64,000 nucleotides of DNA from Vicinamibacterales bacterium (GCA_965206285.1 OZ242205.1:4564478-4628477); one strand, 5' to 3'; positions 37,226 to 63,591 are shown, counted from the first letter of the stretch. A program made the numbers and translations. Notes: generated by a model from the sequence alone, not told the origin.

Positions 37226-37231
37226 CGCGTC

Positions 37232-37468: not shown

Positions 37469-37474
37469 GCTGTC

Positions 37475-37503: not shown

Positions 37504-37563
37504 TCGCCTGCGCGCCGTGGGCAGCGTCCCGTCGGCGCGCCGTGCGCTGTACCCGTACCAGGT

Positions 37564-40600: not shown

Positions 40601-40679
40601 GGGCGGTCCTTCCCGTCGCGCAGCAGCTTCCAGGTGGTCCCCATTCGCGCGCCCGGTTCCCTGCGCAGCCCGCGGCGGC

Positions 40680-41240: not shown

Positions 41241-41728
41241 GCCGGGTCGGTTCCCCTGCCCATCTTCGCTGACGCCGGCTGGTGGGGGACGCCGGCTCCC
41301 GCCTCGTCGGCCTCCGAAACGAGCGCCTCGACACGCCGGGCCGCCCAGCCGACGACGGCCGCCGCGGCCTCCATGGCCTCGTCGTATTCCTCTCTCGTTG
41401 TCGTTGCTCTCTCGTCGGCCGTGTTCGGATACCTCCCGCCGCCGCTGTAGAGCGTCAGCGCCTCCCCCTTGCGGACCTCGTCGGGAATCGCCTCGCCGAT
41501 CCGTGCCGCCCGGTCGAGCAGCAGGCCGATGTCGTGCGTGTACGGAAACACTTCGCCGCGCGCGATCATCACGCCCTTGACTGCCTTTTCGGCCCCCAGG
41601 TGCGCCTCGGAGCACAACAGCCGCAGGTTCAGGCCGGGCTCGTGCTTGCCGGCGATCTTCAAGTGATCCCGCGCTTCGTCGATCCACAGTGGCGCGGCGC
41701 TCGCTTCAAGCGCCCGGCGCTGATTCAT
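41237..41728 (-). CDS. HEPN domain protein (toxin partner of MNT)
   Basis: 163-aa ORF. ..SEAHLGAEKAVKGVMIARGEVFPYTHDIGLLL.. fits the PF05168-type HEPN helix pattern. Overlaps the upstream NTase gene by 23 nt. Confidence 0.7.
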   Translation of the reverse strand: MNQRRALEASAAPLWIDEARDHLKIAGKHEPGLNLRLLCSEAHLGAEKAVKGVMIARGEVFPYTHDIGLLLDRAARIGEAIPDEVRKGEALTLYSGGGRYPNTADERATTTREEYDEAMEAAAAVVGWAARRVEALVSEADEAGAGVPHQPASAKMGRGTDPA

Positions 41729-42041
41729 AAACAGTCCTGCCTTCCCGTAGCGCCGGTGCTATCACGAGCCAATAGGAGTCCTTGTGCCGAAGGAGATCTT
41801 CCGGCCAGACGACCACGACGTCGACCGGAGGACGCGGCCTCGGCAGGTTGCGGTAGATCAGGGCCGCCGTTTTCCGTTGATGACAGTGGTCCTTCACGAC
41901 GAGGAGGTCGAGGTCGCTCGAGGAGGTCATCTCGCCCCGAGCAGCGGAACCGAACAGGATGATCTTCTCTGGCGCCACCGCGTCGACGATGCTCTCGACG
42001 ATGCGCCCGACAACGCTGTCCAGCCGCTCTTGATCCATCAT
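41706..42041 (-). CDS. minimal nucleotidyltransferase (MNT-type antitoxin)
   Basis: Met33 of ORF 41706..42137. KIILFGSAARGEMTSSSDLDLLVV carries the GS..x(9-11)..D.D NTase signature. Confidence 0.75.
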   Translation of the reverse strand: MMDQERLDSVVGRIVESIVDAVAPEKIILFGSAARGEMTSSSDLDLLVVKDHCHQRKTAALIYRNLPRPRPPVDVVVVWPEDLLRHKDSYWLVIAPALREGRTVYESAPGA

Positions 42042-42099
42042 CGCGATTATGCCGCGCCGGCCGGCGCGGCGGCAATCGCCGCAAAGGTGCCCGCCCGGG

Positions 42100-43229
42100 T
42101 CACGTGGCTTTTCTGCGGCGGCCTCGCCCCGTCCCACCGCCCGGCGGCGGCCAGTCCCGCAGCGACTCGCGGGTCAGCGAGAGCGCCCGCGCCTCGTCGT
42201 CGATGAACGCCTCGAAGTAGTCGCCCATCCCGATGTCGAACTCGGGGTCCGGCTCGTTGTGGTACTGCCGTACCCACGGCAGCAGCTCCAGCAGGGCCGC
42301 GAGCAGGGGCGCCAGCCGCTCCGCCGTCCAGCCCTCCTGCTCCCGCATCCGGCTGAAGTACCCGGCGACGGCCCGGCTCTGCTCCAGCGCGTCCAGCCCG
42401 CCCACCCGACCACCAGCGACGGGTCGGCGTCGCGCTCGCAGCCCGGCAGGCTGACGAAGCGTTCCTTGGGCACGTCGAGCTTGCCCCGCAGGCGCCACCA
42501 CACGCCCTTGCGGAAGTCGGCTGCCGCATACCGCGGCGGGACGGGGACGGCGCCGACCTCGGCCGCCTTGAGCGCCACCGCCGCTTCCGGCGTCAGTCGA
42601 TCAGGGTCCGCCGCGGGCAGGGCGACCCGCGCGTCGATGGCGTCCTCCATCCGCTGCAGCGCCCAGGTGTGCTCCCAGGCCGCCCGCTTGCGGAGCCCCG
42701 AGGGCTTGTAGCGCAGCACCGGGAGCAGCGGGACGCTCTCGTCCTCGACCAGTAGGGCCACCAGCTTCGCGACGTCGAAGTCGGCACGTCCCGTGTACAG
42801 CGCGGCCACCTGCAGGAACTCGGCATCGTCCCGCATCTGGTCCGCCAGCGTGGCGGTGGTCGTGAGGCGCGGCTCCAACCAAAGCGACGGCGCTTCCAAC
42901 CGGTCGAGCAGCCAGCCCCGGAGCGCCCGCTCCTGCTGCGTCTCCCACGGCTCGTCGTTCCAGCGGCGCTTGTACTCCGGCTGCTCGATCAGGGCCACGC
43001 CGCCGATCTCCGAGATCCCCGCACACTGGCCGACCGCGTACCGGGCGCTGGTCCGGCGGCGCATCGAGGGCATCGAGAACAACACCAACGTCGAGGCGTG
43101 CCGCTCGAACCACTTCGTCTCGACCTCGCCGGCGGCCATCTTCCGCGCGAGGACGATTTCGAAGGCGCGCTCGCCAAGGCGGACAGCGGGTACGTCGCTG
43201 GCAGACATACAGAGGTCGTCCTCTGTCAA
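42100..43229 (-). pseudogene. pglX: 3-prime third of BREX adenine methyltransferase gene pglX, with one frame change
   Basis: IEQPEYKRRWNDEPWETQQERALRGWLLDRLE, RYKPSGLRKRAAWEHTWALQRMED, LRGKLDVPKERFVSLPG and GWAGW. After a switch near 42395 it reads LDALEQSRAVAGYFSRMREQEGW..LPWVRQYHNEPDPEFD..LRDWPPP. No methyltransferase catalytic N-terminal part is present. Confidence 0.6.
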
Positions 43230-43282
43230 TCCGTAGAGCCGGTAGCAGCGCCAGTCGCGGCCGGGGGCTGCGGGCGCCGGCG

Positions 43283-43440
43283 GTTGCGGTTGGTGACGGC
43301 GCGCTGGGCTTCTGGTCCGCGTTACGGGACGTGTGGCCGAAGACGACCGTGCAACGCGACTGGTGCCACAAGCTCGCCAACGTGCTCGACAAGCTGCCGA
43401 AGCGGCTTCGACCGCGGGCGAAGCGGGCGCTACGCGAGAC
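43283..43440 (+). mobile_element. IS256-family (mutator-type) transposase remnant, ~52 codons
   Basis: AVGDGALGFWSALRDVWPKTTVQRDWCHKLANVLDKLPKRLRPRAKRALRE matches the conserved central block of IS256-family transposases (GDGALGFW..QRCW.HK..NVL..LPK). No intact ORF or ends were found. Confidence 0.7.
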
Positions 43441-43509
43441 GAGCCGGAGGACGAAGTCGTCGCGGTGGATCCGTTCCGGGATGTGGATCAGGTCGCGGAT
43501 CAGCGGCAT
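43438..43509 (-). pseudogene. pglY: second pglY 5-prime fragment (24 codons) truncated by the IS scar
   Basis: ATG CCG CTG ATC CGC GAC.. translates as MPLIRDLIHIPERIHRDDFVLRLV. By eye it is about 85% nt identical to 41165-41235. Confidence 0.6.
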
Positions 43510-44450
43510 GTCGTCGAAGGCGCCGCCGACATCGAGCGCCGTTGCTGGAGGATCTCGGGAATACGCCGTTCCGCGTGCTGAACGATGGTGACCGCGATCT
43601 GCCGAACATCCCGAAAGTCCTGCTCGGTAGTCTCCCCGCCCGAGCCCGGATACTGGGCTTCTCCCCCGTAGTCCGATAGAAGATGCAGCTTCTGCCGATC
43701 CAGCGGAGGCAGGTTCTCGCCTGCGCGCTGCGCCTGCTCGGCCAACGTCCCCAGCTTGTGGGTGAACTCCACGGCAACGCCATGCGCGGTGATGATGCCT
43801 TTCAAGGCCCGCTCCGCCGCCGCCGGGAGATTGATGCAGCGGCTGTCGAGCTCCACTTCGGGATCCGGGTTGCGGCTCTGCGCCAGCTCGCTCCGCGCCT
43901 TGCGAAGCCAATCGAGCGCTTCCTCCGGCTTGTAGAGGCGATTCTGCATCATGTCCGCCGCCCTCGCGCACCTGTTGGCGGCGCTTCCGCGCCGCACCGC
44001 GTCCGAAATCTCGACGGCCGTGGTCCTGTCGTAGACGGTGATGCCGTCGCGGAGAGCCGGCGCCAGGACCAGACTCAGACTGTCCTTGTGCCGCTCGGCA
44101 TGCTCGGGGGTGGCCGCGATGACGTCGACCGGGGGCCCTTCCGCGGACAGGCTGCACTGCGCCCGAGCCGCGAGCTCGCGGCTGTTGCAGCCCGCCTTGA
44201 CGATGAGGAGATCGAGATCGCTCCCGGCCTTCATCATCCCGCGGGCGCCAGACCCGAACAGCACGATCCGATCCGGGTCGACCGCCCGGACGATGCGCTG
44301 TACGACGTCGGCGAGGATGCGACCGTTCGGAGATCCATCCTCGTCGACCCACCCGCGTCGCGACTCGAACGAGCCGTTCGCGTCGAGCGCCGGCCGCGCA
44401 GGCGTCGTCGCCGTCGATGCGCTCATGAAGACCTCGGAATCACCTTCCAT
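43500..44450 (-). CDS. single-chain nucleotidyltransferase-HEPN fusion protein
   Basis: 316-aa ORF. NTase half: RIVLFGSGARGMMKAGSDLDLLIV..PVDVIAATPE. HEPN half: ..WLRKARSELAQS..AAERALKGIITAHGVAVEFTHKLGTL..DYGGEAQYP. The domain junction is near 44000-44020. Alternative start at Met9 (44426). Confidence 0.7.
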   Translation of the reverse strand: MEGDSEVFMSASTATTPARPALDANGSFESRRGWVDEDGSPNGRILADVVQRIVRAVDPDRIVLFGSGARGMMKAGSDLDLLIVKAGCNSRELAARAQCSLSAEGPPVDVIAATPEHAERHKDSLSLVLAPALRDGITVYDRTTAVEISDAVRRGSAANRCARAADMMQNRLYKPEEALDWLRKARSELAQSRNPDPEVELDSRCINLPAAAERALKGIITAHGVAVEFTHKLGTLAEQAQRAGENLPPLDRQKLHLLSDYGGEAQYPGSGGETTEQDFRDVRQIAVTIVQHAERRIPEILQQRRSMSAAPSTTCR

Positions 44451-44692
44451 CGACAGGGTACACCGCCGGCGGTCCGCGGCAAACTCCCACTTGGAACGGC
44501 TGCCGTGGCCGCGATTCCTGGTACCCCTCCTGACCGGCGTTCACACGCCGACATCGGAGGAACGGCGCGCGCTTGGTGTCTCTCGAGGCGGCGTGAGTCG
44601 CTTGCCCGCGACGAAGGCGCGCCGCGTGCGCGAGGCCCCTCAGCCGAATCGGCTGGACGCTGAAGCGGGGCTGCCGCCACCGACGGCTGACT

Positions 44693-45166
44693 TCAGGGTT
44701 CCGTGGACGGAGGGTGCTCCGAGGGGGGCGTGGCGCGCTCGTCCCGCGGCGCCTCCTTCGCGATCATCACTTCGGTCGCCTTGATCAGCGCCGTCGCGTC
44801 GTCGCCGCGTTTCAATCCCAGCTCGTCGAGGGCGTCGCGGGTGATGACCGCGGTCAGCCACTGGTCGCCGATGCGGAGGCGAACCTGGGCGACGAGGCCT
44901 TCCCGCCGCACCTCGTCGACGATGCCCTGCAGGCGGTTGCGGCCGCTGATGCGGACGAGCACGCCGCCGCCGCGCGGGCTGCCCTCGGGGCGGGAGGGCG
45001 GCCGGTCGGTGCGGGCGAGCAGGCGTTCGACTTCCGCTTCCGATATCCGGTGGTGTCCGCCGGCGGTGCGGGTGGTGCGGACGCCGCCGCGGTAGATCCA
45101 GTGCTTGAGGGTCGAGTAGCCGATGCCGAGACGCTCTGCCGCCTGTCTCACCGTCAGCGTGGCCAT
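44693..45166 (-). CDS. transcriptional regulator: excisionase/MerR-type HTH plus a single TOBE (molybdate-binding) domain
   Basis: Met21 of ORF 44693..45226. MATLTVRQAAERLGIGYSTLKHWIYRGGV, then ISGRNRLQGIVDEVRREGLVAQVRLRIGDQWLTAVITRDALDELGLKRGDDATALIKATEV. Divergent from modABC. Confidence 0.75.
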   Translation of the reverse strand: MATLTVRQAAERLGIGYSTLKHWIYRGGVRTTRTAGGHHRISEAEVERLLARTDRPPSRPEGSPRGGGVLVRISGRNRLQGIVDEVRREGLVAQVRLRIGDQWLTAVITRDALDELGLKRGDDATALIKATEVMIAKEAPRDERATPPSEHPPSTEP

Positions 45167-45198
45167 TCGCTCTCGCTCCCGCCTGCCGTGGTCGCGGC

Positions 45199-45226
45199 GT
45201 GACCGGCATCGGCCGATGCCGGTCAC
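45199..45226. promoter_or_regulatory. 28-bp perfect palindrome in the regulator-modA divergent region
   Basis: GTGACCGGCATCGG|CCGATGCCGGTCAC is exactly self-complementary. It is followed at 45240-45290 by a low-GC stretch, CGAATCGAATCATACTATATTGTTCAGAATGAT. Confidence 0.7.
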
Positions 45227-45273
45227 GCCGAATCGTTTGGCGAGTCGAATCGAATCATACTATATTGTTCAGA

Positions 45274-46188
45274 ATGATTGGCTGGCCGAGGCGGCTCGAT
45301 CGTCCGGGCGGCCCGCCCTCGCGGGGCGGGGGGGGCGAAGAACGGGCAACGGCGCCGGGCGCCGGCACGGGCGGGCTGGGGGTCGGGCGGGGGCTGACGG
45401 CGTTCGCGGCGTTCGTTGCCGTCGCCATGCTGGCGGCCTGCGCCGGGCCGGGAGCGTCCCCGCCGGACCGGGTTCGCGTGTCGGCGGCGGTCAGCCTGAC
45501 CGGCCCGCTGGAACGGGTGGCGGGCGCCTTCCAACAGGACACCGGCACCGCGGTCGAGCTGAACCTGGCCGGCTCGAGCACCCTGGCCGCGCAGATCCTG
45601 GCCGGGGCGCCGGTCGACCTGTTCATCAGCGCCGACGAGCGGCAGATGGACCGGGTGGCGGCGGAAGCGCTGATCGACGGGAACACGGGGGTGGTGCTGC
45701 TGTCGAACCGGCTCGCGGTGGTGGTGCCGGCCGGCGCGCCGACGCCGCCGGGCGACGCGGGGGCGTTGCGGGCCCCGGGGTTCCGCCGCATCGCCATCGG
45801 AGATCCGGCCGGGGTGCCCGCCGGTGTCTACGCGCGCGGCTATCTGGCTTCGCTGGGGCTCTGGGACGCGCTGGCGCCCCGGGTGGTGCCGACGCGCAGC
45901 GTGCGGGCGGCGCTGGCCGTGGTCGAGGCGGGCGACGCCGATGCGGGCATCGTGTACCGGACGGACGCGCGGTCGTCGGACGAGGTCGCTGTCGCGTTCG
46001 AGGTGCCGGAGGACGAGGGGCCGGCCATCGCGTATCCGGCGGCGGTGCTGACCGACGCTCCGAACCCGGCGGGGGGGGCGCGGTTCCTCGCCCATCTCCA
46101 GCGCCCGGCCGCCCGCGAGGTGTTCAGGCAAGCCGGCTTCATCGTGCCGGAGCCTGCGCCCGCCGCCGACCGGCCCGCCGCGCCATGA
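45274..46188 (+). CDS. modA: molybdate ABC transporter substrate-binding protein
   Basis: First ATG of ORF 45199..46188. Lipoprotein-like LTAFAAFVAVAMLAACAG. Motifs AAVSLTGPL, NLAGSSTLAAQI, DLFISAD, PAGVYA and IVYRTDA. Confidence 0.8.
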   Translation: MIGWPRRLDRPGGPPSRGGGGEERATAPGAGTGGLGVGRGLTAFAAFVAVAMLAACAGPGASPPDRVRVSAAVSLTGPLERVAGAFQQDTGTAVELNLAGSSTLAAQILAGAPVDLFISADERQMDRVAAEALIDGNTGVVLLSNRLAVVVPAGAPTPPGDAGALRAPGFRRIAIGDPAGVPAGVYARGYLASLGLWDALAPRVVPTRSVRAALAVVEAGDADAGIVYRTDARSSDEVAVAFEVPEDEGPAIAYPAAVLTDAPNPAGGARFLAHLQRPAAREVFRQAGFIVPEPAPAADRPAAP

Positions 46189-46258
46189 ACGACGTCCCCT
46201 CCGTCGCCCGGTTGGCCTCAGCCGAAGGGACGGCCATCGACGGCGAGGCGACTGGCCC

Positions 46259-46909
46259 ATGAACGACGTCCTGTCCGTCGCCGGGTTCACCGCGGGCATG
46301 GCCGCCCTCGCCACCGCCGTCATGCTTCCCCCCGGCCTCGCCGTCGCGTGGGTGCTGGCGCGGCGCCGCTTCCCGGGGCACGCGGTGCTCGAGACCCTGG
46401 TGTCGCTGCCCCTGGTGCTTCCGCCGGTGGCGACGGGGCTGATCCTCATCACCGTCCTGGGGCGGCGGGGCGTGCTCGGGGGGCTGCTCGAACGGATGGG
46501 CCTGGAGGTGATGTTCACGTGGCGCGCGGTGGTGGTGGCGATGGCGGTGATGGGCCTGCCGCTGCTCGTGCGCTCGGCGCGGGCGGGGTTCGAGCAGGTG
46601 GACCGGCGCTACGAGCAGATCGCGGCGACGCTGGGGGCCCGGCCGTCGCGGGTCTTCTTCACGGTGAGCCTGCCCCTGGCCCGGCGCGGCGTCCTCGCGG
46701 GGTCGCTGCTGGGGTTCTCGCGGGCGCTGGGCGAGTTCGGGGCGACGATCATGGTGGCGGGCGCGCTGCCGGGCACGCGGACCATCGCGGTGGCCATCTA
46801 CACCTACACCGAGACCGGCCAGGACGCCGCCGCCGCGATGATGCTGGCGGTGTCGGCGGCCATCGCGTTCGGCGCCCTGCTCGCGTCGAACCGCCTGACC
46901 GCGGCATGA
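46259..46909 (+). CDS. modB: molybdate ABC transporter permease
   Basis: 216-aa ORF. It has five or six TM helices. The EAA-type loop is ATLGARPSRVFFTVSLPLARRGVLAG. Confidence 0.85.
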   Translation: MNDVLSVAGFTAGMAALATAVMLPPGLAVAWVLARRRFPGHAVLETLVSLPLVLPPVATGLILITVLGRRGVLGGLLERMGLEVMFTWRAVVVAMAVMGLPLLVRSARAGFEQVDRRYEQIAATLGARPSRVFFTVSLPLARRGVLAGSLLGFSRALGEFGATIMVAGALPGTRTIAVAIYTYTETGQDAAAAMMLAVSAAIAFGALLASNRLTAA

Positions 46910-47574
46910 CCGGCGAGGCGCCGAGCCCCGGCTCCATCACCCTCGACTTCGCCCTGCAGCAGGGCGGCTTCGTGCTCGAGCTGCGCGAGCGCATCGAGGC
47001 GCGGGTCGTCGCCCTGTTCGGCCCGTCGGGGGCCGGCAAGACGACGGTGCTCGAGTCGATCGCGGGGCTGCGCCGGCCGCGGCGCGGCGTCATCCGCATC
47101 GGCACGCGCACCCTCTTCGACGCCGAGGCGGGGGTGGACGTGCCCTGCCACCGCCGGGGCGTCGGCTACGTGCCCCAGGACCTCGCCCTCTTCCCCCACA
47201 TGAACGTGCGCCGCAACATCCTCTACGGCGCGGGGGCGGGACCGGGCGGCGGGTTCGAGCACGTCATCGCCCTGCTCGAGCTCGGTCCCCTGCTCGACCG
47301 CGGCGTCGCCGGTCTTTCCGGCGGCGAGCGCCAGCGCGTCGCCCTCGCCCGCGCCCTCGCCGCGTCGCCGGCCCTCCTGCTGCTCGACGAGCCCCTCGCG
47401 GCCCTCGACGCCACCCTGCGCGGCCGCATCCTGCCGTATCTGGAACGCATCCGGGACGACCTGGCGACCCCGATGCTCTACGTGTCCCACGCCGAGGCCG
47501 AGGTGCGGGCTCTCGCCGACTGGGTGGTGGTGCTCGACGCCGGCCGCGCCGTGCGGTCGGGGGCCGAGCTGTGA
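46906..47574 (+). CDS. modC: molybdate ABC transporter ATP-binding protein (no C-terminal TOBE domain)
   Basis: ATG at 46906 (ATGA overlap with modB), in the frame of ORF 46348..47574. GPSGAGKTT, LSGGERQRVALARAL, LLLDEP. Confidence 0.85.
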   Translation: MTGEAPSPGSITLDFALQQGGFVLELRERIEARVVALFGPSGAGKTTVLESIAGLRRPRRGVIRIGTRTLFDAEAGVDVPCHRRGVGYVPQDLALFPHMNVRRNILYGAGAGPGGGFEHVIALLELGPLLDRGVAGLSGGERQRVALARALAASPALLLLDEPLAALDATLRGRILPYLERIRDDLATPMLYVSHAEAEVRALADWVVVLDAGRAVRSGAEL

Positions 47575-47664
47575 CGTGCCGGGCGCGGAAGGTCCGGCAC
47601 GCGTGCACGGAGCCGCCGCGTGCGCTATGATCGGACCTGAATTCAGACCGTTTTCGAGGTGGTT

Positions 47665-47943
47665 ATGCCGACTGCGGTTGTCAGTCTGAGCGCATTCAAG
47701 GCCAAGGCAGCACAGATGCTCGCCGACATGAAGGCCGCAGAGCACGAGATCGTCCTCACGCAGCGTGGGGCGGCGAGTGCGGTGGTGCAGGACTTCGACG
47801 CACACCAGCGCCAGCAGGACGCGCTGCTCATGTTGAAGCTCATGGTGCAGGGTGAGGTCGACATCCAGGCGGGGCGGACGACTCCGCAGGATCAGGTGTT
47901 CGCGGAGATCAAGGCTCGCTTGACCACGCCCACGGATGGCTGA
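47665..47943 (+). CDS. Phd/YefM family antitoxin
   Basis: Met3 of ORF 47659..47943, preceded by GAGGTGG. VVSLSAFKAKAAQMLADMKAAEHEIVLTQRGAASAVVQDFDAH. Overlaps the toxin gene by 8 nt. Confidence 0.75.
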   Translation: MPTAVVSLSAFKAKAAQMLADMKAAEHEIVLTQRGAASAVVQDFDAHQRQQDALLMLKLMVQGEVDIQAGRTTPQDQVFAEIKARLTTPTDG

Positions 47944-48259
47944 CTTCGAGGTCCTGTGGACCGACGCGGCGAAACTCGACCTCCATCGAATCGTCACGTT
48001 CATTGCCGAAGGGAACCCTGCCCGTGCTCTTGGCGTGTCGCAGCAGGCGGAGCAACGGTGCCGGGCTCTCGTCTCCTTTCCGGAACGTGGCCGTATCGTT
48101 CCCGAGCTGAGAGCAGTGGGCGTGCTCGCCTACCGGGAGCTGGTCGAAGGGCCATGGCGCATCGTGTATCGATTCGATGCGGATCGTGTCCACGTCACCG
48201 CGGTTCTCGACGCCCGTCGGGATCTGTCCAGCCTGCTGCTCGAACGGCTGGTCCGCTGA
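47936..48259 (+). CDS. parE: ParE/RelE family toxin
   Basis: 107-aa ORF. W.DAAKLDLHRIVTFIA, FPERGRIVPEL, YRELVEGPWRIVYRFDADRVHVTAVLDARRDL. Confidence 0.8.
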   Translation: MADFEVLWTDAAKLDLHRIVTFIAEGNPARALGVSQQAEQRCRALVSFPERGRIVPELRAVGVLAYRELVEGPWRIVYRFDADRVHVTAVLDARRDLSSLLLERLVR

Positions 48260-53335: not shown

Positions 53336-54757
53336 TCAGGCCGGCAGGAGCCGTTCGAGATGCTCCTGCAGGAGAGTCCAGGCCCGCCGGACGTGGCGCT
53401 CCTCGGTGCGGATGTGTCCGACGGCCAGCCGCAGGGCGAAGCGGCCGTCGAGGCGCGTGTGCGACAGGAACACCTCGCCGGTGGCGTTGACGGCGTCGAG
53501 CAGCCGGGCGTTCAGGGCGTCGAGGTCGCCGGCGGGCGCCGCGGGGTTGGCGCGGAAGCAGACGACCGAGAACGGCGCCGGGGCGAGCCGCTCGAAGCGG
53601 TCGCTGGCGTCGACCCAGTCGGCGAAGCACCGGGCGAGCCGCATGTGCTCGGCGATGCGGCGGCGGATGCCGTCGGCCCCGAAGTAGCGCAGCACCGTCC
53701 ACAGCTTCAGGGCGCGGAACCGGCGCCCGAGCTGCACGCCGGTGTCCATGAGGTTGCGGACCGCCCCCGGTTCCCGGCTCTGCAGATAGTCCGGGGTCAG
53801 GGCGAACGCCGCTTCGATCCGGTCCATGCGGCGGCAGAAGAGCGCGCTCAGATCGAACGGCGTGAACAGCCACTTGTGCGGGTTCACGACCAGCGAATCG
53901 GCCCGGTCGCATCCGGCCAGCGTCTGTTCGTGGCCCGGCACCATCGCCGCGACCCCCGCGTAGGCGGCGTCGACGTGCAGCCACAGGCGCTCCCGGGCGC
54001 AGATGTCCGCGATGTCCGGCACCGGGTCGACGCTGGTGACCGCGGTCGTGCCCACCGTCGCCACCACCGCCAGCGGGGTGACGCCGCTTCCCCGGTCCTC
54101 GTCGATTGCCGCCGCGAGCGCGGCGGGGCGCAGGCGGAACCGTTCGTCGGCGTCGATGCGCCGGAGCCCGCTCTGTCCCAGTCCCAGCGTCATCACCGCC
54201 TTGTCGACCGACGAGTGGGCATGCTCGGAGCAGTAGATCCGCAACCGCGCGAGGTCCGGGCGGCCCGCGAGGCCGCGCTCGCGCACCTCGGGCACCGCCT
54301 GCCGGGCCGCGGCGAGGGCGTGCAGGGTCGAGATGGAGGCGGTGTCGTAGATGACCCCCTCGAACGCGTCCGGCAGCCCGAGCAGGCGCCGGAGCCAGCC
54401 GAGGGCCACCTCTTCGAGCTCGGTCACCGCCGGGGAGGTGCGCCACAGCATGCCCTGGGCGTTGAACGCGGCGCTCAGGAACTCGGCGAGCACGCCGGGG
54501 CCGCTGGCGCTGATCGCGAAGTACGCGAAGAACCCGGGATGGTTCCAGTGGGTCAGGCCAGGGACGATGAGCCGTTCGACGTCGTCCCGGATGGCGCTCC
54601 ACGGCTCGCCGGAGGCGGGCGCCTCGGGCGGCAGGGCCTCGCGAACCTCGCCCGGCTTCACCCGCGACAGCACCGGATACCGCTCGGCCTCTTCGAGATA
54701 CCGGCCGATCCAGTCGACCAGCTCGTGACCCGCCTGCCGGAACGCCGCCGCGTCCAT
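53336..54757 (-). CDS. PLP-dependent group II decarboxylase (aromatic-L-amino-acid decarboxylase-like)
   Basis: ORF 53336..54853, with the most plausible start at Met33 (MDAAAFRQAGHELVDWI). Motifs HWNHPGFFAYF, DAAYAG, NPHKWLFTPFD (Lys for PLP). Confidence 0.8.
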   Translation of the reverse strand: MDAAAFRQAGHELVDWIGRYLEEAERYPVLSRVKPGEVREALPPEAPASGEPWSAIRDDVERLIVPGLTHWNHPGFFAYFAISASGPGVLAEFLSAAFNAQGMLWRTSPAVTELEEVALGWLRRLLGLPDAFEGVIYDTASISTLHALAAARQAVPEVRERGLAGRPDLARLRIYCSEHAHSSVDKAVMTLGLGQSGLRRIDADERFRLRPAALAAAIDEDRGSGVTPLAVVATVGTTAVTSVDPVPDIADICARERLWLHVDAAYAGVAAMVPGHEQTLAGCDRADSLVVNPHKWLFTPFDLSALFCRRMDRIEAAFALTPDYLQSREPGAVRNLMDTGVQLGRRFRALKLWTVLRYFGADGIRRRIAEHMRLARCFADWVDASDRFERLAPAPFSVVCFRANPAAPAGDLDALNARLLDAVNATGEVFLSHTRLDGRFALRLAVGHIRTEERHVRRAWTLLQEHLERLLPA

Positions 54758-54973
54758 GTCGCCGAGCGGAGGCGCGGACGTTGGAAGTGGCGGCTCGCCG
54801 GGGGGGTGTGCGGACATCGGCCCTTGGTGTGCGCGGACCGAAAATTGTAGCATCAGGTGTCGGAGGTGTCGGGGCCGTCGGCCCGGGGCGACGGCCGTCC
54901 CGGGGGCCCCGACCTCGGTTCAGCGCCCGAAGAGTGCGGGCGCACGGAGGTTCTGGTGGCAGAAGCAGCAGTA

Positions 54974-55426
54974 GTGCATACGAGCCGGTTGCGGATCGAG
55001 CGCATCGGCGGTCCCTTGCGGCACGCGTATCTGGAGGGCTTCGACGAACCGATCCGGTTCGGGGTCCACGGTGGGATCAAGGCGTTCTACGGTGTCGAGC
55101 CGCCGGAAGACGTGCCGGCCACGCTGGATTACATGGTCGGCGCCGTCGGCGGTTGACTGCTCGGCACCCTTGCACGCGCACTGGAGGTGCGCGACATCCC
55201 GGCGCCGACGGAGAAGCTGCAGGCCAGCGTGGAAGGCGACATCCAGGCCATCGACAACGTGCTGCGAATCACGAAGATCCGCGTGCGGTACCGTATCCGG
55301 ATCCCGGCCGGGACCCGCGAGCGGGCGCAGCGGGCGGTCGACACCCACGCGACGAAGTGCCCCGCCGCCAACAGCGTACGCGGGTGCATCGACCTCGATA
55401 TCGCCGCCGACATCGCGGAGGAGTGA
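54974..55426 (+). CDS. OsmC/Ohr family peroxiredoxin-like protein with in-frame UGA at the first catalytic Cys position (candidate selenoprotein, or a nonsense pseudogene)
   Basis: ORFs 54857..55156 and 55187..55426 are in the same frame, separated only by TGA (55154-55156). Joined they read ..PATLDYMVGAVGG-U-LLGTLARALEV..DTHATKCPAANSV. U is at residue ~61 and Cys at ~129 of ~150 aa, mirroring the two conserved OsmC cysteines. Confidence 0.6.
55175..55193 (+). other. candidate bacterial SECIS-like hairpin
   Basis: CGCGCAC-TGGAG-GTGCGCG, a perfect 7-bp stem with a 5-nt G-containing loop, starting 18 nt after the UGA. Confidence 0.4.
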
Positions 55427-55704
55427 TCCGGGCGTCCATCGAAGCTGCGCAGGTGGAGAACCGGGCCGCGCACACGGAGCTGGATCGGAAGATGGAGAAC
55501 CTCGGAGAGCGTATCGACCGGCTGTACGAGCTGCTGCCGGCCCAGGCGGACCGGGTAATCGCGCCGCGCGACCTCGGGGAAACAAGAGTTGCGGAGGCCG
55601 GCAACGGTGGTGGTCACGGGCCGTCCGCCGTCGTCCCGCTCTGCGTCGGGCCAGGATCACCGGTTTCAGAACGCGACTTGGGGGTTGTCGTTCGTACACC
55701 GTGA
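55423..55704 (+). CDS. small hypothetical protein (93 aa), translationally coupled on both sides
   Basis: Its GTG overlaps the OsmC-like stop (GTGA) and its TGA overlaps the next ATG (TGATG). Sequence ..AAHTELDRKMENLGERIDRLYELLPAQ.. has coiled-coil character. No family recognised. Confidence 0.35.
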   Translation: MIRASIEAAQVENRAAHTELDRKMENLGERIDRLYELLPAQADRVIAPRDLGETRVAEAGNGGGHGPSAVVPLCVGPGSPVSERDLGVVVRTP

Positions 55705-57281
55705 TGCCTGCGGCGGAATCGATCGCCTGGCTCGCATGGGGAGCCGACGCCTTCGCCCGCGCCGCGGCGGAGCAGAAACCGGTCCTCCTGTTCATCGGCA
55801 CCGCGTGGTGCCGGTGGACGGCGGAGATGGATCGGTTCAGCTACCGCGATGCGCGCGTCGTGCGTCTCGTGGCCGACCGGTTCCTGCCGGTGCGGGTCGA
55901 CGCCGAGCGGCGCCCCGACGTCAGCGCGCGGTACAGCCTCGACGGGTGGCCGACCACCGCGTTCCTCACCCCGGACGGCGACCTCCTGGGAGGCGGAACC
56001 TATCTCGATGCCGACGCCCTGACCGCGGTGCTGGCCGACGTGGCCGCCGCGTTCGCGGGCCGGCGCGCGGACATCGACGCGCGCGCCGCCGCCGTCCGGA
56101 CCGCGGCGGCGCCGTCCGGGCAGCCGGGCCGCACCGCCGGCGTCCGCCGGACCCCCGGGGATGCGGATTACCCCGCCGGGCTGGGCGGCGCCACGGGACC
56201 GGGCCACGATGCCGGCCTGGACCACGACGCCGGGCAGTGGCTGCACGATCTGCTGCTGGTGCGCTTCGACGCGACCTGGGCCGGCTTCGGCGACGGCGCC
56301 AAGCGGGTCGAGGCCGACGCCCTCGCCGCCGCCCTTCTGCGGTGTCGCGACACCCGGGACCCGGACCTGACCCGCATCGTCGCCCGCACGCTGGACGGCA
56401 TGGCCGGCGGAGGCCTGTGGGATCCGGTCGACGGCGGGTTCTTCCGCTACTGCGCGGCGCGCGACTGGTCGGAGCCGGCGCCGGAAAAGCTGCTGGTGCC
56501 GAACGCGCGCCTGCTCGATCTGTACCTCTCCGCGTCGACCATCCTGGATCGGCCGGACTACGCCGAACGCGCGCGCGCCATCGTCCGCTTCGTGCACGGC
56601 GCGCTGGCCGACGCCGACGGCGGGTTCTTCGCCAGCCAGCGGGGAGCGCCCGATCCCGACCGGCCCGGGCACTCCCCGGCGCCGGGACACGGGGCCATCG
56701 ACCCGACCGTCTACACGGATGCCACCGCGGTCATGGCCTCCGCCTACGTGCACGGCGCGTCGGTGCTCGACGACCGTTCGCTCCTCGAGTTCGCGGCCGA
56801 GTCGGTCGATCGGGTGGTGATGGCGACGTACGAGCGCGGCGGCGGCGTCGGACACACCGCGGCCGGGAGTCCGATCCCGCGCGGACTGCTCGGCGACCAG
56901 GTGCTGGCGAGCGCGGCCCTGCTCGATCTGTACGAGGTGACGGGGCAGCCCGTCTATCTCGACATGCCGCGTGAGCTGATGGCCTATTGCCACCAGACCC
57001 TGTGGGACGAGACCGGCGGCTTCGCCGACCGGGACCCCAGGCTCCCCGGCCCGGACGCACCGGCCGGGCTCCTGCGCGATCCCGTCTACCCGCTGGACCT
57101 CAACTGCCGCGCCGCGATGGTGCTCGTCCGCCTGGCCGCCCTGGCCGAAGAGCCGGGCTATCTGGACCTCGCGCGCCGGACCCTGGCGCTGCAGACGCCC
57201 GTGTATCGCGAGCTGGGACTCGCCGGCGCCGCCTACGTGCTGGCGCTGGACGCGGCGTCCGGTGCGTCGTCGCGACAATGA
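55704..57281 (+). CDS. thioredoxin-domain protein of the DUF255/YyaL type (thioredoxin fold plus alpha/alpha-toroid domain)
   Basis: In the frame of ORF 55071..57281 from the ATG at 55704. IAWLAWGADAFARAAAEQKPVLLFIGTAWCRW..DAERRPDVSARY..WPTTAFLTPDG..GGLWDPVDGGFFRY. The usual CxxC is reduced to a single Cys. Confidence 0.75.
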   Translation: MPAAESIAWLAWGADAFARAAAEQKPVLLFIGTAWCRWTAEMDRFSYRDARVVRLVADRFLPVRVDAERRPDVSARYSLDGWPTTAFLTPDGDLLGGGTYLDADALTAVLADVAAAFAGRRADIDARAAAVRTAAAPSGQPGRTAGVRRTPGDADYPAGLGGATGPGHDAGLDHDAGQWLHDLLLVRFDATWAGFGDGAKRVEADALAAALLRCRDTRDPDLTRIVARTLDGMAGGGLWDPVDGGFFRYCAARDWSEPAPEKLLVPNARLLDLYLSASTILDRPDYAERARAIVRFVHGALADADGGFFASQRGAPDPDRPGHSPAPGHGAIDPTVYTDATAVMASAYVHGASVLDDRSLLEFAAESVDRVVMATYERGGGVGHTAAGSPIPRGLLGDQVLASAALLDLYEVTGQPVYLDMPRELMAYCHQTLWDETGGFADRDPRLPGPDAPAGLLRDPVYPLDLNCRAAMVLVRLAALAEEPGYLDLARRTLALQTPVYRELGLAGAAYVLALDAASGASSRQ

Positions 57282-57485
57282 CGGCGGGGACGCCGAGCCA
57301 CCCGCGGCACGCGCGTCAATCCCGGGCGCCGATGCCCGTCGATCGCCGCGGACTCCTCCCGGTACGCGATGTCCGAGCCCGGAAGCCCGGGGTGAAAAGC
57401 CGGCGCTTTTGCCGTGGGCTCTCCAGCGTGGCGCACCCCCGGGCCGAGGCGTCACCGTGGTACACTGCGTCGCCCTGGAGGTGCC

Positions 57486-59357
57486 GTGTCCATCGATCGC
57501 TCACTGCTTCCCGCGTTGCGCAACGTCGCGACCCGGCTTCGGATCGAGTCGGTCCGGGCCACGAGTCGGGCGGGAAGCGGTCATCCCACGAGTTGCTGTT
57601 CGGCCGCCGAGATCATGGCGGCGCTGTTCTTCGGGCAGATGCGGTTCGACCCGCGGGACCCCGGCCACGAGGACAACGATCGTTTCGTGCTGTCGAAAGG
57701 GCATGCGGCGCCGGTGCTGTACGCGGCATGGGCCGAGGCGGGGGTGATCCCGCACGAGCAGCTCGCGACGCTGCGGGAGATCGAGTCCGATCTGGAGGGG
57801 CACCCGACGCCGCGGCTGCCGTTCGTGGACGTCGCGACGGGTTCGCTCGGGCAGGGCATCTGCGCGGCGGTGGGGATTGCCCTCAACGCGCGCCGCATCG
57901 GATCCGGCTATCGCACTTACGTGCTTGTCGGTGACGGGGAGTCGGCGGAAGGATCGGTCTGGGAGGCGGCGCAGGCCGCGGCCGGGCTGGGCCTCGACAA
58001 CCTGTGCGCGATCACCGACGTCAACGCCCTGGGCCAGAGCCGGGCCACGCAGTGGGCGCACGACCTCGCGGCCTACGAGCGGCGGTGGCAGGCGTTCGGG
58101 TGGCATGTCGTGGTGGTCGACGGGCACGACCTCGCCGCCGTCCTGGATGCGCTGGACGAGGCGGCGAGCACCGCCGGCCAGCCGACGATGATTCTCGCGC
58201 GTACCGTCAAGGGCAAGGGCGTGTCATTCGCCGAGGGGCTCGACGGTTGGCACGGCAAGCCGTTCAAGGGGGCCGATCTCGATCGCGCCCTTCAGGAGCT
58301 CGATGGGCAGCTCGGCGAGCCGACCCGCAATCCGCCGATATCGCCCCCGCCGTCGCGGGCGAGCCGACCCGCCTCGCCGCCGGCGCTCCGTCTGCCCGCG
58401 TACGAGCTCGGCGCCAAGGTCGCGACCCGCGAGGCCTACGGCGTGGCGCTGGCCGCGCTGGGGGCCTCCGACCCGCGGGTGGTCGCGCTCGACGCCGACG
58501 TCAAGAACTCGACCTTCAGCGACAAGTTCGAGCAGCAGCATCCCGACCGCTTCTATCAGACTTACATCGCCGAGCAGGTGATGGTGGGGGCGGCGCTCGG
58601 CCTCGCGAGCCGCGGCGCGATTCCCTTTCCGTCGACGTTCGCCGCCTTTCTCACCCGGGCCGCCGACTTCATCCGCATGGGGGGCATCGGCAACGTCAAC
58701 GTCAAGCTCGCGGGCTCGCACGCGGGAGTGTCGATCGGCGAGGACGGCCCCTCGCAGATGGCCCTGGAGGACCTGGCGATGATGCGGGCGGTGCCGGGTT
58801 GCGTGGTGCTCTATCCGTGCGACGCGGTCAGCACGTCGGCGCTCGTCGCGGCGGCGGCCGCGCACGACGGCATGACCTACATCCGGACCTCGCGCCCGAA
58901 GACCCCGGTCGTCTACGCGGCGGACGAGCGGTTCCCCATCGGCGGGTCCAAGACCCTGCGCCAGAGCGCGGCGGACGCGGCCACCGTGGTCGCGGCCGGG
59001 GTCACCGTCTTCGAGGCGCTGGCCGCCTGCGAGACGCTGGCCGAGGCCGGGGTGCGCATTCGGGTCATCGACGCCTACTCCCTGCAGCCGATCGACGCCG
59101 ACAGGCTGGTGGCCGCCGCGCGCGAGACCGGCGACCGTCTGATCACCGTCGAGGACCACTACGCGGCGGGCGGGCTGGGAGATGCGGTGAGCGACGCCGT
59201 TGCCCCCCACGGCATCGCCGTTCAGCGCCTCGCGGTGCGCGACGTGCCCCGGAGCGGCAAGCCGGCCGAGCTGCTCGACCGGTTCGGCATCTCTTCCCGG
59301 CACATCGTGGCCGCGGTCAGGGCCGCGGTCGAGGCCGGTCCGATGTCTCCGGCCTGA
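57486..59357 (+). CDS. transketolase family protein (N- and C-terminal halves fused)
   Basis: GTG at 57486 in ORF 57414..59357. SGHPTSCCSAAEIMA, LSKGHAAP, GSLGQG, VGDGESAEG, then the pyrimidine-binding and C-terminal domains (AEQVMVGAA.., SHAGVSIGEDGPSQ). Confidence 0.85.
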   Translation: MSIDRSLLPALRNVATRLRIESVRATSRAGSGHPTSCCSAAEIMAALFFGQMRFDPRDPGHEDNDRFVLSKGHAAPVLYAAWAEAGVIPHEQLATLREIESDLEGHPTPRLPFVDVATGSLGQGICAAVGIALNARRIGSGYRTYVLVGDGESAEGSVWEAAQAAAGLGLDNLCAITDVNALGQSRATQWAHDLAAYERRWQAFGWHVVVVDGHDLAAVLDALDEAASTAGQPTMILARTVKGKGVSFAEGLDGWHGKPFKGADLDRALQELDGQLGEPTRNPPISPPPSRASRPASPPALRLPAYELGAKVATREAYGVALAALGASDPRVVALDADVKNSTFSDKFEQQHPDRFYQTYIAEQVMVGAALGLASRGAIPFPSTFAAFLTRAADFIRMGGIGNVNVKLAGSHAGVSIGEDGPSQMALEDLAMMRAVPGCVVLYPCDAVSTSALVAAAAAHDGMTYIRTSRPKTPVVYAADERFPIGGSKTLRQSAADAATVVAAGVTVFEALAACETLAEAGVRIRVIDAYSLQPIDADRLVAAARETGDRLITVEDHYAAGGLGDAVSDAVAPHGIAVQRLAVRDVPRSGKPAELLDRFGISSRHIVAAVRAAVEAGPMSPA

Positions 59358-60566: not shown

Positions 60567-61169
60567 TCAGCGCACCGCGTCGCTTGCCAGGCGGTCGTCC
60601 GGGTCGAACCGGTCGCGCGCCGGCATGACGACGTCGGGCAGGGTGGCCGCATTCATCACCGCCTGGTCGTCGATGATGCCGTTCTTGGCCAGGATCCAGG
60701 CGACGAGCCCGTATACCTCGTCCGGGCTCAACGTCCCGGGGGCATTGCGGGGCATCGCGCGGTAGATGTAGTCGTAGAGGGTCGTGGCGTACGGCCAGTA
60801 GTTGCCGACGGTCGGCGGACGCGCCGCCGGGTCGCGGCCGACCAGCGGAGCGGCGATGCTGCCTTCGCCCTCCCGGCCATGACAGGAGCGGCAGGCGCGC
60901 CCCCAGACGAGCGCGCCCTCCGCGGCGCTGCCGCCGCCGAGCGGCAGTCCGGCGCCGTCCGGCATGACGTCGATGTCGAGGGCCGCGATTTCGTCCGCGG
61001 TCGCCGGGCGTCCCAGCCCCAGCGGGCCCGCCGCCGGGTCCGCCGACTGCCCGGCCGCGGCCCAGGGCGCTCCCGCCAGCAGGAGAGCCAGCCCGAACCC
61101 GCCGGCAAGCGCGCTTGCGCGCGGCCGCGCCGGCCGGCCGGTTCCGCGCGGGGAAGCCGTGCGGGTCAT
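60567..61169 (-). CDS. sorB: c-type cytochrome subunit of sulfite dehydrogenase (SorB/SoxD-like)
   Basis: Last 200 aa of ORF 60567..62492. Haem site CRSCHG. ATGA overlap with the Mo-subunit gene stop (61166-61169). Confidence 0.7.
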   Translation of the reverse strand: MTRTASPRGTGRPARPRASALAGGFGLALLLAGAPWAAAGQSADPAAGPLGLGRPATADEIAALDIDVMPDGAGLPLGGGSAAEGALVWGRACRSCHGREGEGSIAAPLVGRDPAARPPTVGNYWPYATTLYDYIYRAMPRNAPGTLSPDEVYGLVAWILAKNGIIDDQAVMNAATLPDVVMPARDRFDPDDRLASDAVR

Positions 61170-62395
61170 GACTGCAGCCTTTCCGCTCCGAACAGGACCC
61201 TTCCGTCGGCGCCGATGGTCCACGAGGTGATGGGGTTCTGGTGGTACCGGGTCCGCGGTCCCCGGGCCGCGACGAGAGCCTCCCAGGTCGGCTGCACGTA
61301 GCCGGTCTCGTCGGTCGCGCGGCTCATGATCTCGGCCGCGCCGCCGTCCCAGCGCCACGGGGCGCGGAACCGCACATGGGCCTTCGCCAGCACCGGCGCC
61401 TGCAGCTCCGCTTCCTGCCAGGTCGCGCCGCCGTCGGCGCTGACGTCGACCCGCGCGATCCGGCCGCGGCCGCTCCACGCCAGCCCGCGGATCTCGTGCC
61501 AGCCGGGCTCGATGACGCGGGGATAGGCGGGATCGGTGATGATGGACCGCGCGTCCATGACGAAGCTGAACTGGCGCGAGCGGCTCCCGTCCCCGAGGGG
61601 GTCGGTGTACTTCGACGTTTCTTCCCGGGTCATGAACGGCCGGTCGGCGAGCTCGATGCGGCGGAGCCACTTGACGCTGGAGTTGCCTTCCCACCCCGGC
61701 AGCAGCAGCCGGGCGGGGTACCCGTTGCCGGGCATCAGGGCGTCGCCGTTCTGCGCGTAGACGATCATCGCGTCGTCGAACGCCTTCTCCATCGGGATGC
61801 TGCGGGTCATCACCGCGGCGTCCTGTCCCTCGGCGAGGAACCACGTGGCGCCGGCGTGCGCGCCGACCTCGCGGAGCACCGTCGACAGCAGGACCCCGGT
61901 CCACTCGGTCTGGCTCGTGAGCCCGCAGACCATCTGCGGCAGAGTCTCCGGCGCGCCCCGCCGGAGGTTGCCCGAGCACTCGAGGAAGCAGATCCGCGAC
62001 GTGGCGGGGAAACGCTCGAGGTCGGCCAGCGTGAAGAGGGTCGGGCGGTCGACCAGGCCGTGGACGAGGAGCTCGTACCGATCCGGGTCGATCGCGGGCA
62101 CCCCGCCGTGGTGCCGCTCGAAATGCAGATCCGCCGGGGTGATGGTGCCCCGCAGTTCCTGCAGAGGCGTGCGCGAGGACGTCGAGCTGGGGTCGCGCCG
62201 CGGGGTCACGAAGGGCGAGCGCTGCCCGACCTCGTTCGGACCGGGTCCGGGACGCCGGGTGGTGTCGATGGCCTGCTGCCCGGCCGCCGGCGCCGCCGCG
62301 GCCACCGCCCCGGCCGCCCCGGCGAGCACTTCCCGGCGGGTCAGGCCGACCCGCCGCGGGCGAGAGGAGTCTGCCGATCGTTCGTGGTGCGCCAT
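61166..62395 (-). CDS. sorA: sulfite dehydrogenase molybdopterin subunit (SorA/SoxC-like)
   Basis: 409-aa ORF. Tat signal TRREVLAGAAGAVAAAAP. Motifs FERHHGG, FLECSGN (Mo-ligand Cys), GYPARLLLPGWEGNSSVKWL, plus a C-terminal dimerisation domain. Confidence 0.8.
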   Translation of the reverse strand: MAHHERSADSSRPRRVGLTRREVLAGAAGAVAAAAPAAGQQAIDTTRRPGPGPNEVGQRSPFVTPRRDPSSTSSRTPLQELRGTITPADLHFERHHGGVPAIDPDRYELLVHGLVDRPTLFTLADLERFPATSRICFLECSGNLRRGAPETLPQMVCGLTSQTEWTGVLLSTVLREVGAHAGATWFLAEGQDAAVMTRSIPMEKAFDDAMIVYAQNGDALMPGNGYPARLLLPGWEGNSSVKWLRRIELADRPFMTREETSKYTDPLGDGSRSRQFSFVMDARSIITDPAYPRVIEPGWHEIRGLAWSGRGRIARVDVSADGGATWQEAELQAPVLAKAHVRFRAPWRWDGGAAEIMSRATDETGYVQPTWEALVAARGPRTRYHQNPITSWTIGADGRVLFGAERLQS

Positions 62396-62839: not shown

Positions 62840-63283
62840 TCAGGGCATGATGACTTCGACGTGGGCGCGCGTGGCCGCGAGGGGCGCCAGGCGCCGATCG
62901 AGCGTCAAGAGCGTGGCGTTGTTGGTGACGGCGACCGCCAGCAGGTAGGCATCCGTCACCTGCTGGTGCCCAAGCAGATGTCCGAAGTGTGTCTCCACCT
63001 GCCGGAGGGGCGGAAGCGGCTCCACGTAGCGGTGCCGGCGGTCGCGAACCAGCCTGGCGAGCACATCGAGCGCCTGGGCGGGCGTTCGGCGCACGCCCAC
63101 GACGGCGGGGTTCGACGAGAGGCGTACGAAACCGAGCTGGGTGAGCACGCACGTGGCCCAGCCGGCGGCGGGCCGGCGCTCGAGCCGGCCCACCACGGCC
63201 CGGTGGAACTGGTGGTTGGGCCACCCGAGCGCCATGAGCGCGTTGACGTCGAGCAGCAGCGGACGGTTCTCAGACGACGCCAT
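62840..63283 (-). CDS. vapC: PIN-domain toxin
   Basis: 147-aa ORF. LLLDVNALMAL..H.FH, and QVTDAYLLAVAVTNNATLLTLDRRL. Confidence 0.8.
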   Translation of the reverse strand: MASSENRPLLLDVNALMALGWPNHQFHRAVVGRLERRPAAGWATCVLTQLGFVRLSSNPAVVGVRRTPAQALDVLARLVRDRRHRYVEPLPPLRQVETHFGHLLGHQQVTDAYLLAVAVTNNATLLTLDRRLAPLAATRAHVEVIMP

Positions 63284-63515
63284 CGGCGTCGAGCGCCTTC
63301 TGGATCCGGGAGGCGGGAATCACGCTCGCGGTTCGGGGAACCTCGAACGCGGCGAACCGTCCCGTGCCTCCACGTTTCTCGGGAGCCTGCGGCTCGGGTT
63401 GCAGCGCCTGCCGCGCCATGTCCGACAGGACGCGTCCGAGTCGCTGACCGGTGGCGCGGGCGTGGCTCAGCGCCGCTTCGTAGATGTCGTCGTCGATGGT
63501 CACCGTCGTTCGCAT
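63270..63515 (-). CDS. vapB: VapB-type antitoxin
   Basis: Met13 of ORF 63270..63551. MRTTVTIDDDIYEAALSHA.. is the typical N-terminus of this antitoxin family. Overlaps vapC by 14 nt. Confidence 0.75.
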   Translation of the reverse strand: MRTTVTIDDDIYEAALSHARATGQRLGRVLSDMARQALQPEPQAPEKRGGTGRFAAFEVPRTASVIPASRIQKALDADGVV

Positions 63516-63591
63516 GGCCGCATGATACAGTGATACACCTGCATCGTCCACGCGATATCGTCGCGCCGCCGGCCGACAGCCGCGCGCGGCG

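Follow-up and report, generated by a model that had tools for sequence, protein, structure and literature searches.

The window analysed here is a 64,000-nt stretch of a Vicinamibacterales bacterium genome (GCA_965206285.1, OZ242205.1:4564478-4628477; ca. 71% G+C), with coordinates counted along its whole length. On its plus strand, at 54956-55426, lies an OsmC-like gene whose in-frame TGA codon (55154-55156) is a candidate codon for selenocysteine (Sec). Translation of 54857-55426 in one frame gives a product that contains PATLDYMVGAVGG directly before a stop and LLGTLARALEVRDIP directly after it, and that ends with THATKCPAANSVRGCIDLDIAADIAEE and a second stop. The TGA is the sole internal stop of this frame, which bears out by direct translation the statement of an earlier note on this DNA that two same-frame open reading frames (ORFs) are parted here by a TGA only. 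Judged from the sequence, GTG at 54956 is most likely the start codon of the gene. It is preceded, at a distance of 5 nt, by a Shine-Dalgarno-like GGAGG that can be read at 54946-54950 (+), and in the orthologues displayed GGAG(G) precedes the start codon at the equivalent relative position. Because the orthologues begin with M-x-[DE]-V-V-H-T-S, with the start 5-7 codons ahead of the His, the start at 54974 adopted in the earlier note is too far downstream. Its description of the joined protein as OsmC/Ohr-type stands, while the length and numbering (ca. 150 amino acids, UGA at residue ca. 61, second Cys at ca. 129) have to be revised to 156 codons, with the putative Sec at residue 67 and a second Cys at residue 135, and with TGA at 55424-55426 as the stop codon. 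The window was also scanned for in-frame TGAs with coding-like G+C content at third codon positions (GC3) on both flanks. Five sites were found, four of which are junctions of differently annotated ORFs or ordinary ORF ends; only the TGA at 55154-55156 interrupts a single protein domain.

When Cys is put in place of the stop, the joined product matches the Pfam OsmC family (PF02566) with 48.9 bits (cutoff 27.5) over residues 56-149. A phmmer search against solved structures aligned U67 with the first redox Cys of 4MH4, 4NOZ, 1UKK and 1N2F. It coincides with the Cys of the GCF motif in the T. thermophilus OsmC (1UKK) and with Cys60 of the P. aeruginosa Ohr (1N2F), the peroxidatic residue. In the alignment with 1N2F, Cys135 (TGC, 55358-55360, +) pairs with Cys124, and it likewise pairs with the equivalent residues of 4MH4, 4NOZ and 1UKK; its surroundings, K-C-P-A-A-N-S, correspond to the V-C-P-Y-S-N motif (VCPYSNATRG) that carries the resolving Cys of Ohr; Cys135 is the presumed resolving cysteine here. 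The two residues thus align with the redox cysteines of Ohr/OsmC, in agreement with the earlier placement of the UGA at the peroxidatic Cys and of the second Cys at OsmC-like spacing. The TGC codon of Cys135 and the CPAA motif are invariant in 81 distinct orthologue sequences (see below), and R11, R22 and D58 are likewise invariant in this OsmC-like clade. As a stand-in for the window protein we modelled P0002 with AlphaFold2 (AF2), a full-length relative of 66% identity that has Cys at the UGA column. The model has a predicted local distance difference test (pLDDT) score of 74, with 82-95 in the C-terminal two-thirds, and its top Foldseek matches in the PDB are all OsmC/Ohr proteins (probability 1.0, E-values down to 1.9e-7).

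Cys forms such as P0002 are common. When 1.84 billion cluster representatives (50% identity) were searched with a profile, 1,056 relatives were obtained, and the best 150 were classified together with the earlier protein matches. Among these, 41 full-length representatives have Cys at the UGA column, five have Trp and are read-through forms of a TGA, and Ser, Asp, Gly or Ala occurs in a small number. A further 75 representatives are N-terminal halves that stop at the UGA column, and 35 are C-terminal halves. The earlier note had proposed an alignment of OsmC homologues in which Cys or Sec would occupy this column; Cys was found in the 41 representatives, and TGA in the orthologues described below. 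Interchange of Sec and Cys at a redox site is the defining criterion for bacterial selenoprotein families (PMC1088965).

The TGA is conserved far beyond the window. A protein search gave four full-length and ca. 28 half-length relatives, the N-terminal halves ending in ...GAVGG or ...AAVGA and the C-terminal halves starting soon after the stop. A scan of genomes, one per species, returned more than 576 records with a relative, of which the best 80 loci (L001-L080) were examined; these are metagenome-assembled genomes of Vicinamibacterales, Vicinamibacteria or Acidobacteriota, and their affiliation assigns the window to Vicinamibacterales. Together with the window and three metagenome contigs they make up a set of 84 orthologues with 81 distinct gene sequences. 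TGA is present at the same codon in 84/84 orthologues, at identities down to 49%. Outside this set, the metagenome contig L084 also carries the TGA, along with a hairpin, and the contig of P0027 shows the same split in two ORFs. These data bear directly on the possibility that the gene is a pseudogene, in which a recent nonsense mutation turned TGC or TGT into TGA and the downstream half is decaying. An in-frame stop is indeed a single mutational step from either Cys codon, and one relative, L074, has an extra TAG. Yet the TGA is shared by all orthologues, no further stop or frameshift occurs downstream, and the resolving Cys with its CPAA motif does not vary. The mean ratio of nonsynonymous to synonymous substitution rates (dN/dS) amounts to 0.14 in the N-terminal half and, over codons +14 to +89 after the UGA, to 0.22, and the number of distinct gene sequences rules out that the loci are assembly copies of one. 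Because the downstream part is intact and under purifying selection, a pseudogene is excluded for practical purposes and we attach hardly any probability to it. The earlier note had named a stop shared with close relatives and further decay of the downstream half as an observation that would speak against Sec; the stop is shared, decay is not seen. Its preference for Sec over a TGC-to-TGA nonsense mutation is borne out by the universal TGA, the selected downstream half, the Cys homologues, and the covarying hairpin and second selenoprotein gene described in the following paragraphs.

A perfect 7-bp hairpin, CGCGCAC-UGGAG-GUGCGCG, occupies positions 55175-55193 (+), with arms at 55175-55181 and 55187-55193 and the loop UGGAG at 55182-55186. 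As the earlier note reported, it begins 18 nt after the UGA. Bacterial selenocysteine insertion sequences (SECIS) are in general in-frame hairpins that follow soon after the UGA and have a small apical loop with a G (PMC1088965). The stem was assessed on 38 distinct 69-nt sequences; 98.1% of cells are paired, and three stem pairs show changes on both sides. A C-G pair has become G-C in five sequences by way of coupled Arg-to-Gly and Asp-to-Gln replacements, and in L081 an Ala/Val swap accompanies the changes of C-G to U-A and A-U to G-C. All of 500 shuffles fell short of these values, and slides by 1-3 columns left at most 69% of cells paired. Synonymous variation is also suppressed at this place. 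In the 81 orthologues the normalised synonymous entropy is 0.25 over codons +1 to +13 as compared to 0.63 elsewhere (Mann-Whitney p = 2e-6); the collapse of synonymous diversity covers exactly codons -1 to +13, and the lowest 13-codon window of the gene runs from -1 to +12. The synonymous rate dS is 0.23 across the hairpin codon zone and 0.9-0.96 in the rest of the gene, a roughly fourfold suppression. Several codons are practically fixed: GGT at -1 (69/71) and GCA at +8 (78/79), both otherwise rare in this G+C-rich genome, as well as CTG at +1 (80/80) and +9 (81/81) and GTG at +11 (79/79). With GGT before and CTG after the putative Sec codon (55151-55159 in the window), the immediate context is fixed as U-UGA-C, which suggests that there is selection on the nucleotides directly around the UGA, beyond the hairpin. 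The divergent sequences L082 and L084 (49-60% identity) have another hairpin, GGCC[A/G]-CGGUGC-UGGCC, which starts 14 nt after the UGA and has GGU in its loop. An Rfam search of 54500-57500 gave no match at E <= 1.

Similar to the SECIS of E. coli fdhF, the hairpin lies within the coding sequence shortly 3' of the UGA and has a small G-containing apical loop, here UGGAG, which would shrink to GGA with a closing U.G pair. The stem of the fdhF element starts ca. 11 nt after the UGA, in comparison with 18 nt in the window, and no bulged U is evident in the window hairpin, to which SelB is predicted to bind. The case for the hairpin as a putative SECIS is comparative. Of the scoring that the earlier note had suggested for this candidate, the comparative part is in its favour, while the folding energy alone is not distinctive.

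The same region invites a different reading, namely that the locus encodes two polypeptides, a 66-residue N-terminal peptide and a C-terminal peptide that starts from GTG 55187 (codon +11), which would assemble non-covalently. In agreement with this, GTG is found at codon +11 in every sequence that has Val there, GGAG precedes it in the window, and gene callers predict a C-terminal ORF of 79-85 amino acids. The GGAG, however, touches the GTG without a spacer, and many relatives have GGAA instead. L081 has GCA, which cannot serve as a start, at codon +11, and still its hairpin is kept by compensatory changes. A C-terminal product would, moreover, lack the catalytic residue and the helix residues +1 to +10, which are the most conserved of the family, and the Cys-form homologues are single polypeptides with the Cys exactly at the UGA column. 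We consider a split gene very improbable.

Nor does the organism appear to use TGA as a sense codon. Such a code (genetic code table 4 or 25) might be suspected from the relatives P0001, P0003 and P0004 (contigs L083, L081 and L082), which were deposited with Trp at the column where the contig DNA shows TGA. These Trp translations are all on contigs shorter than 1.7 kb, for which a gene caller could prefer table 4 because of one codon; apparently an alternative genetic code was chosen for each short contig. In the window, with its high G+C content, TGA ends 31 of the 41 predicted genes, among them the OsmC-like gene itself. A reassigned genetic code is excluded because TGA is thus the ordinary stop, and the probability left for it is vanishingly small.

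A second gene with the features of a selenoprotein gene is located 7 kb from the OsmC-like gene, as the earlier note had pointed out. This SelW/Rdx gene (62767-62531, -; PF10262, E-value 4.8e-16) contains the motif C-K-V-U, with the TGA at 62737-62735, and a 7-bp hairpin, GGCCGCC-AGUUU-GGCGGCC (62720-62702, -), starts 14 nt after that TGA. Nine related loci (L019, L054, L061, L067, L068, L071, L076, L077 and L079) contain the SelW/Rdx gene as well. Each of them has the TGA and, at the corresponding position, a hairpin similar in sequence, the two arms of which have changed in concert in L077 (GGCUGCC/GGCAGCC). Selenoproteins have been reported in Acidobacteria (PMC1794560). Another CxxU motif, at 47825, was considered as a SelW-like gene and discarded, being out of frame within a Phd/ParE-type toxin-antitoxin pair. 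Directly downstream of the SelW-like gene and on the same strand, a sulfite-oxidase-type molybdopterin oxidoreductase is encoded at 61166-62395 (PF00174 and PF03404), and a long overlapping ORF near the latter has a cytochrome-c-like CxxCH motif. The SelW-like gene is further flanked by a PIN-domain ORF (62840-63283) and a small overlapping upstream ORF (63270-63551).

It could be argued that the UGA is read through without Sec, the hairpin stimulating near-cognate or suppressor decoding as Trp, Cys or Gly. A conserved UGA, a hairpin and selection on the downstream part are equally expected under any programmed read-through, and searches of the window and the related loci for the Sec machinery were negative. 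The position of the UGA exactly at the redox Cys column speaks against this, since interchange of Sec and Cys is the classical selenoprotein signature (PMC1088965), and Trp or Gly would abolish the catalytic residue. Also the SelW/Rdx CxxU gene with its like arrangement in this genome and in relatives, and the selenoproteins known from Acidobacteria (PMC1794560), argue for Sec. Read-through of another kind is thus improbable, with a small chance left to it.

Taking the evidence together, we consider it highly probable that 54956-55426 is one gene for a 156-residue protein of the OsmC/Ohr fold with Sec as its first redox residue. The conserved TGA, the covarying hairpin, the use of TGA as a stop in the other genes and the SelW/Rdx gene nearby are the reasons for regarding it, on sequence grounds, as a true selenoprotein gene that carries a bacterial SECIS. 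Several observations weigh against this assignment. A search for tRNA-Sec with ARAGORN, covering the 64-kb window and 60 related loci, was negative, and Pfam scans of ca. 44 window ORFs and of the fetched flanks revealed no SelA, SelB or SelD. A match of the pyridoxal phosphate (PLP)-dependent decarboxylase encoded next to the OsmC-like gene to SepSecS (20 bits) was below the cutoff and reflects a shared fold type only. These searches covered the 64-kb window and the related loci; the Sec machinery is assumed to be encoded elsewhere in the genome. The folding energy of the hairpin is unexceptional for DNA of 71% G+C (z -1.3 to -2.0), and the downward extension of the stem (lower stem) in the minimum-free-energy fold was dropped, as it is paired in only 69% of cells. 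The loop is also ca. 6 nt further from the UGA than that of E. coli fdhF. Finally, the TAG in L074 (CBDAMZ010000009.1) lies ca. 38 codons before the Sec codon, at the His/Gln of ...GPLR[H/Q]A[YF]...; either the copy is truly inactivated or the assembly is in error here.

The proposed decoding would follow the bacterial Sec pathway. SelB.GTP.Sec-tRNASec would bind at the hairpin at 55175-55193 with its small G-containing loop, and recruitment of SelB by the hairpin would let the ribosome insert Sec rather than terminate. For the product, peroxidase activity is predicted from the chemistry of Ohr/OsmC. By analogy with the mechanism of these enzymes, the Sec67 selenolate would attack a hydroperoxide and be converted to a selenenic acid, which would react with Cys135 to give a selenenylsulfide that an external reductant would then resolve. 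Ohr uses lipoylated proteins as reductant. The understanding of Sec decoding and of the action of OsmC enzymes is left unchanged by the finding. For comparing selenol with thiol catalysis, enzymes of the Ohr/OsmC fold with Sec and with Cys as the peroxidatic residue would form a natural pair.

OsmC-like selenoproteins as such have been described before. They were found in 2005 in Sargasso Sea sequences, with assignment to COG1765/YhfA and a UxxT motif (Zhang, Fomenko and Gladyshev; PMC1088965), and they appear in reviews of 2022 and 2026 under COG1765/YhfA or PF02566, again with UxxT (PMC9312934, PMC13188914). The NCBIfam model NF041052, "OsmC-related (seleno)protein", presumably represents this family. 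The clade described here shares with the 2005 proteins the fold of the OsmC superfamily, Sec in place of a redox Cys, the existence of Cys homologues and a hairpin directly 3' of the UGA. It differs from that family, as far as the published description goes, in the motif, which is U-L-L-G-T with the Thr at +4 instead of UxxT, and in the N-terminal signature HTSR...GVHGGIK, and the PDB sequence matches are to Ohr/OsmC, not to YhfA. The signature of the whole clade can be written as HTSR...GVHGGIK...G-U-L-x-G-T...K-C-P-A-A. Against NF041052 the window protein scores 26.2 bits (cutoff 95), and ten other clade members score at most 27.2. The scores of the window protein for the models of Ohr (TIGR03561, 18.2 bits), OsmC (TIGR03562, 18.8 bits) and SACOL1771 (TIGR03563, 24.6 bits) are also far from the cutoffs of 88.85, 85.8 and 166.15, respectively, and the ten other members likewise remain below these. 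The clade is therefore of the same kind as the known OsmC-like selenoproteins, judging from its sequence features, yet is missed by the NF041052 model.

The two-Cys enzymes Ohr and OsmC (1N2F, 1UKK and the E. coli OsmC, 1QWI) have the same fold, and both redox residues align, the first on a long helix and the second in a C-P motif ca. 68 residues further on. Unlike these enzymes, the clade has Sec instead of the peroxidatic Cys, and the sequence similarity is weak (E-value 8.5e-5 at best). Selenoproteins of the peroxiredoxin, Prx-like and AhpD-like families are also peroxide-detoxifying thiol or selenol enzymes in which Sec takes the place of the attacking Cys (Table 3 of PMC1088965); these have the thioredoxin or AhpD fold, whereas the fold here is that of OsmC. 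In public records the gene is split into fragments of 85-105 amino acids named "OsmC family protein", "uncharacterized OsmC-like protein" or "hypothetical protein". A gene of an abundant acidobacterial order of soil and marine environments is thus called as two fragments or with Trp. Among the relatives, one NCBI record is labelled Ilumatobacter. Taken together, the OsmC-like and SelW-like genes would imply that Sec decoding is widespread in Vicinamibacterales, which bears on estimates of selenium use in soil.

Downstream of the OsmC-like gene a protein of the DUF255/YyaL type is encoded at 55704-57281 (+; PF03190, 92.8 bits; PF13899, 41.4 bits). It consists of a thioredoxin-like domain and a C-terminal domain. 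CxxC is the norm in the DUF255/YyaL family; the window protein has W-C-R-W-T (Cys36, codon 55809-55811), and the reduction of the motif to one Cys, which the earlier note had remarked on, is thus real. In the 73 loci in which the motif corresponding to 55806-55820 was compared, WCxx[T/S] occurs 61 times, WSxxC and WSxxS four times each and WCxxC once. In some lineages the single Cys has shifted or vanished while the Sec-containing OsmC-like gene is kept. DUF255 is found downstream of the OsmC-like gene in 74/80 loci, often within 10-130 nt. The divergent PLP-dependent decarboxylase gene upstream is kept in 73/80 loci and a transketolase gene downstream in 64/80, and the pairing of OsmC-like gene and DUF255 may simply be gene order conserved at the level of the order. 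In distant members with readable neighbours, i.e. the Sec forms L082 and P0027 and the Cys form P0002, DUF255 is not adjacent. Since the 80 loci belong to one order and the three distant members have no DUF255 next to them, the adjacency is suggestive and no proof of functional coupling.

Between the two genes lies a 93-aa ORF (55423-55704, +), which overlaps the OsmC-like gene by GTGA (55423-55426) and the DUF255 gene by TGATG (55702-55706). Both overlaps are present in the sequence as the earlier note described them; its tightly coupled three-gene redox operon is not upheld. A tblastn search with the 93-aa ORF gave matches in 10/80 loci, mostly to residues 2-43, and its stretch from residue 3 to residue 43 corresponds to the C-terminal tail encoded by a small repeat-protein gene. 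This gene is intact in the OsmC-DUF255 spacer of several relatives (L004, L008, L010 and L012-L017, at ca. 6600-7040), where it encodes a transmembrane helix (MFKREWVNAGAAVVAAMAAVGLLVVG...), a variable number of 11-residue repeats (EMRTSIEAVQV / ENRALIEAAQA) and the tail ...ENRAAHAELGRKIESxGERIDRLYELLLAQANP, followed by the stop. Species differ in the number of repeats, and the distance from the OsmC-like gene to DUF255 ranges from ca. 3 to ca. 1000 nt. The 93-aa ORF retains only the last repeat and the tail, its N-terminus being gone; it has no ancestral stop after ...AQANP and continues into sequence that is non-coding in the relatives, and its GC3 falls from 0.87 (first half) to 0.64 (second half). 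It is probably a truncated remnant rather than a conserved gene, and on the few matches, the lost N-terminus and the drop in GC3 it was rejected as a third operon gene. As the ORF is not conserved, the GTGA and TGATG overlaps are peculiar to the window genome and its nearest relative, L002, and what is conserved is the adjacency of the OsmC-like gene and DUF255. A scan for promoters and terminators gave nothing useful for defining an operon.

On the basis of gene adjacency only, the DUF255 protein with its CxxT motif could, speculatively, be proposed as a candidate reductant or partner of the Sec67 protein. The more far-reaching proposal combines several parts: an uncatalogued Sec clade of the OsmC superfamily outside NF041052/COG1765, in which Sec is fixed across much of Vicinamibacterales and the selenenylsulfide is resolved by the CxxT motif of DUF255. 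As a whole this is doubtful, and we regard it as a tentative idea that is rather unlikely, if by no means far-fetched. If true, the pair of OsmC(Sec) and DUF255 would be a first functional clue for the DUF255/SPATA20 family.

Elsewhere in the window, the region 36797-48259 is a cluster of defence and addiction-type genes. It includes genes for a PIN-domain protein (36797-37231), a BrxC/BrxD-like ATPase (39287-40690; PF10923, E-value 1e-126), a HEPN protein (41237-41758), a protein that combines nucleotidyltransferase and HEPN domains (43500-44540) and the Phd/ParE-like pair (47659-48259). A histidine biosynthesis cluster at 21867-27546 (-) comprises two genes of the His_biosynth family and those for IGPD, HisG and PRA-CH.

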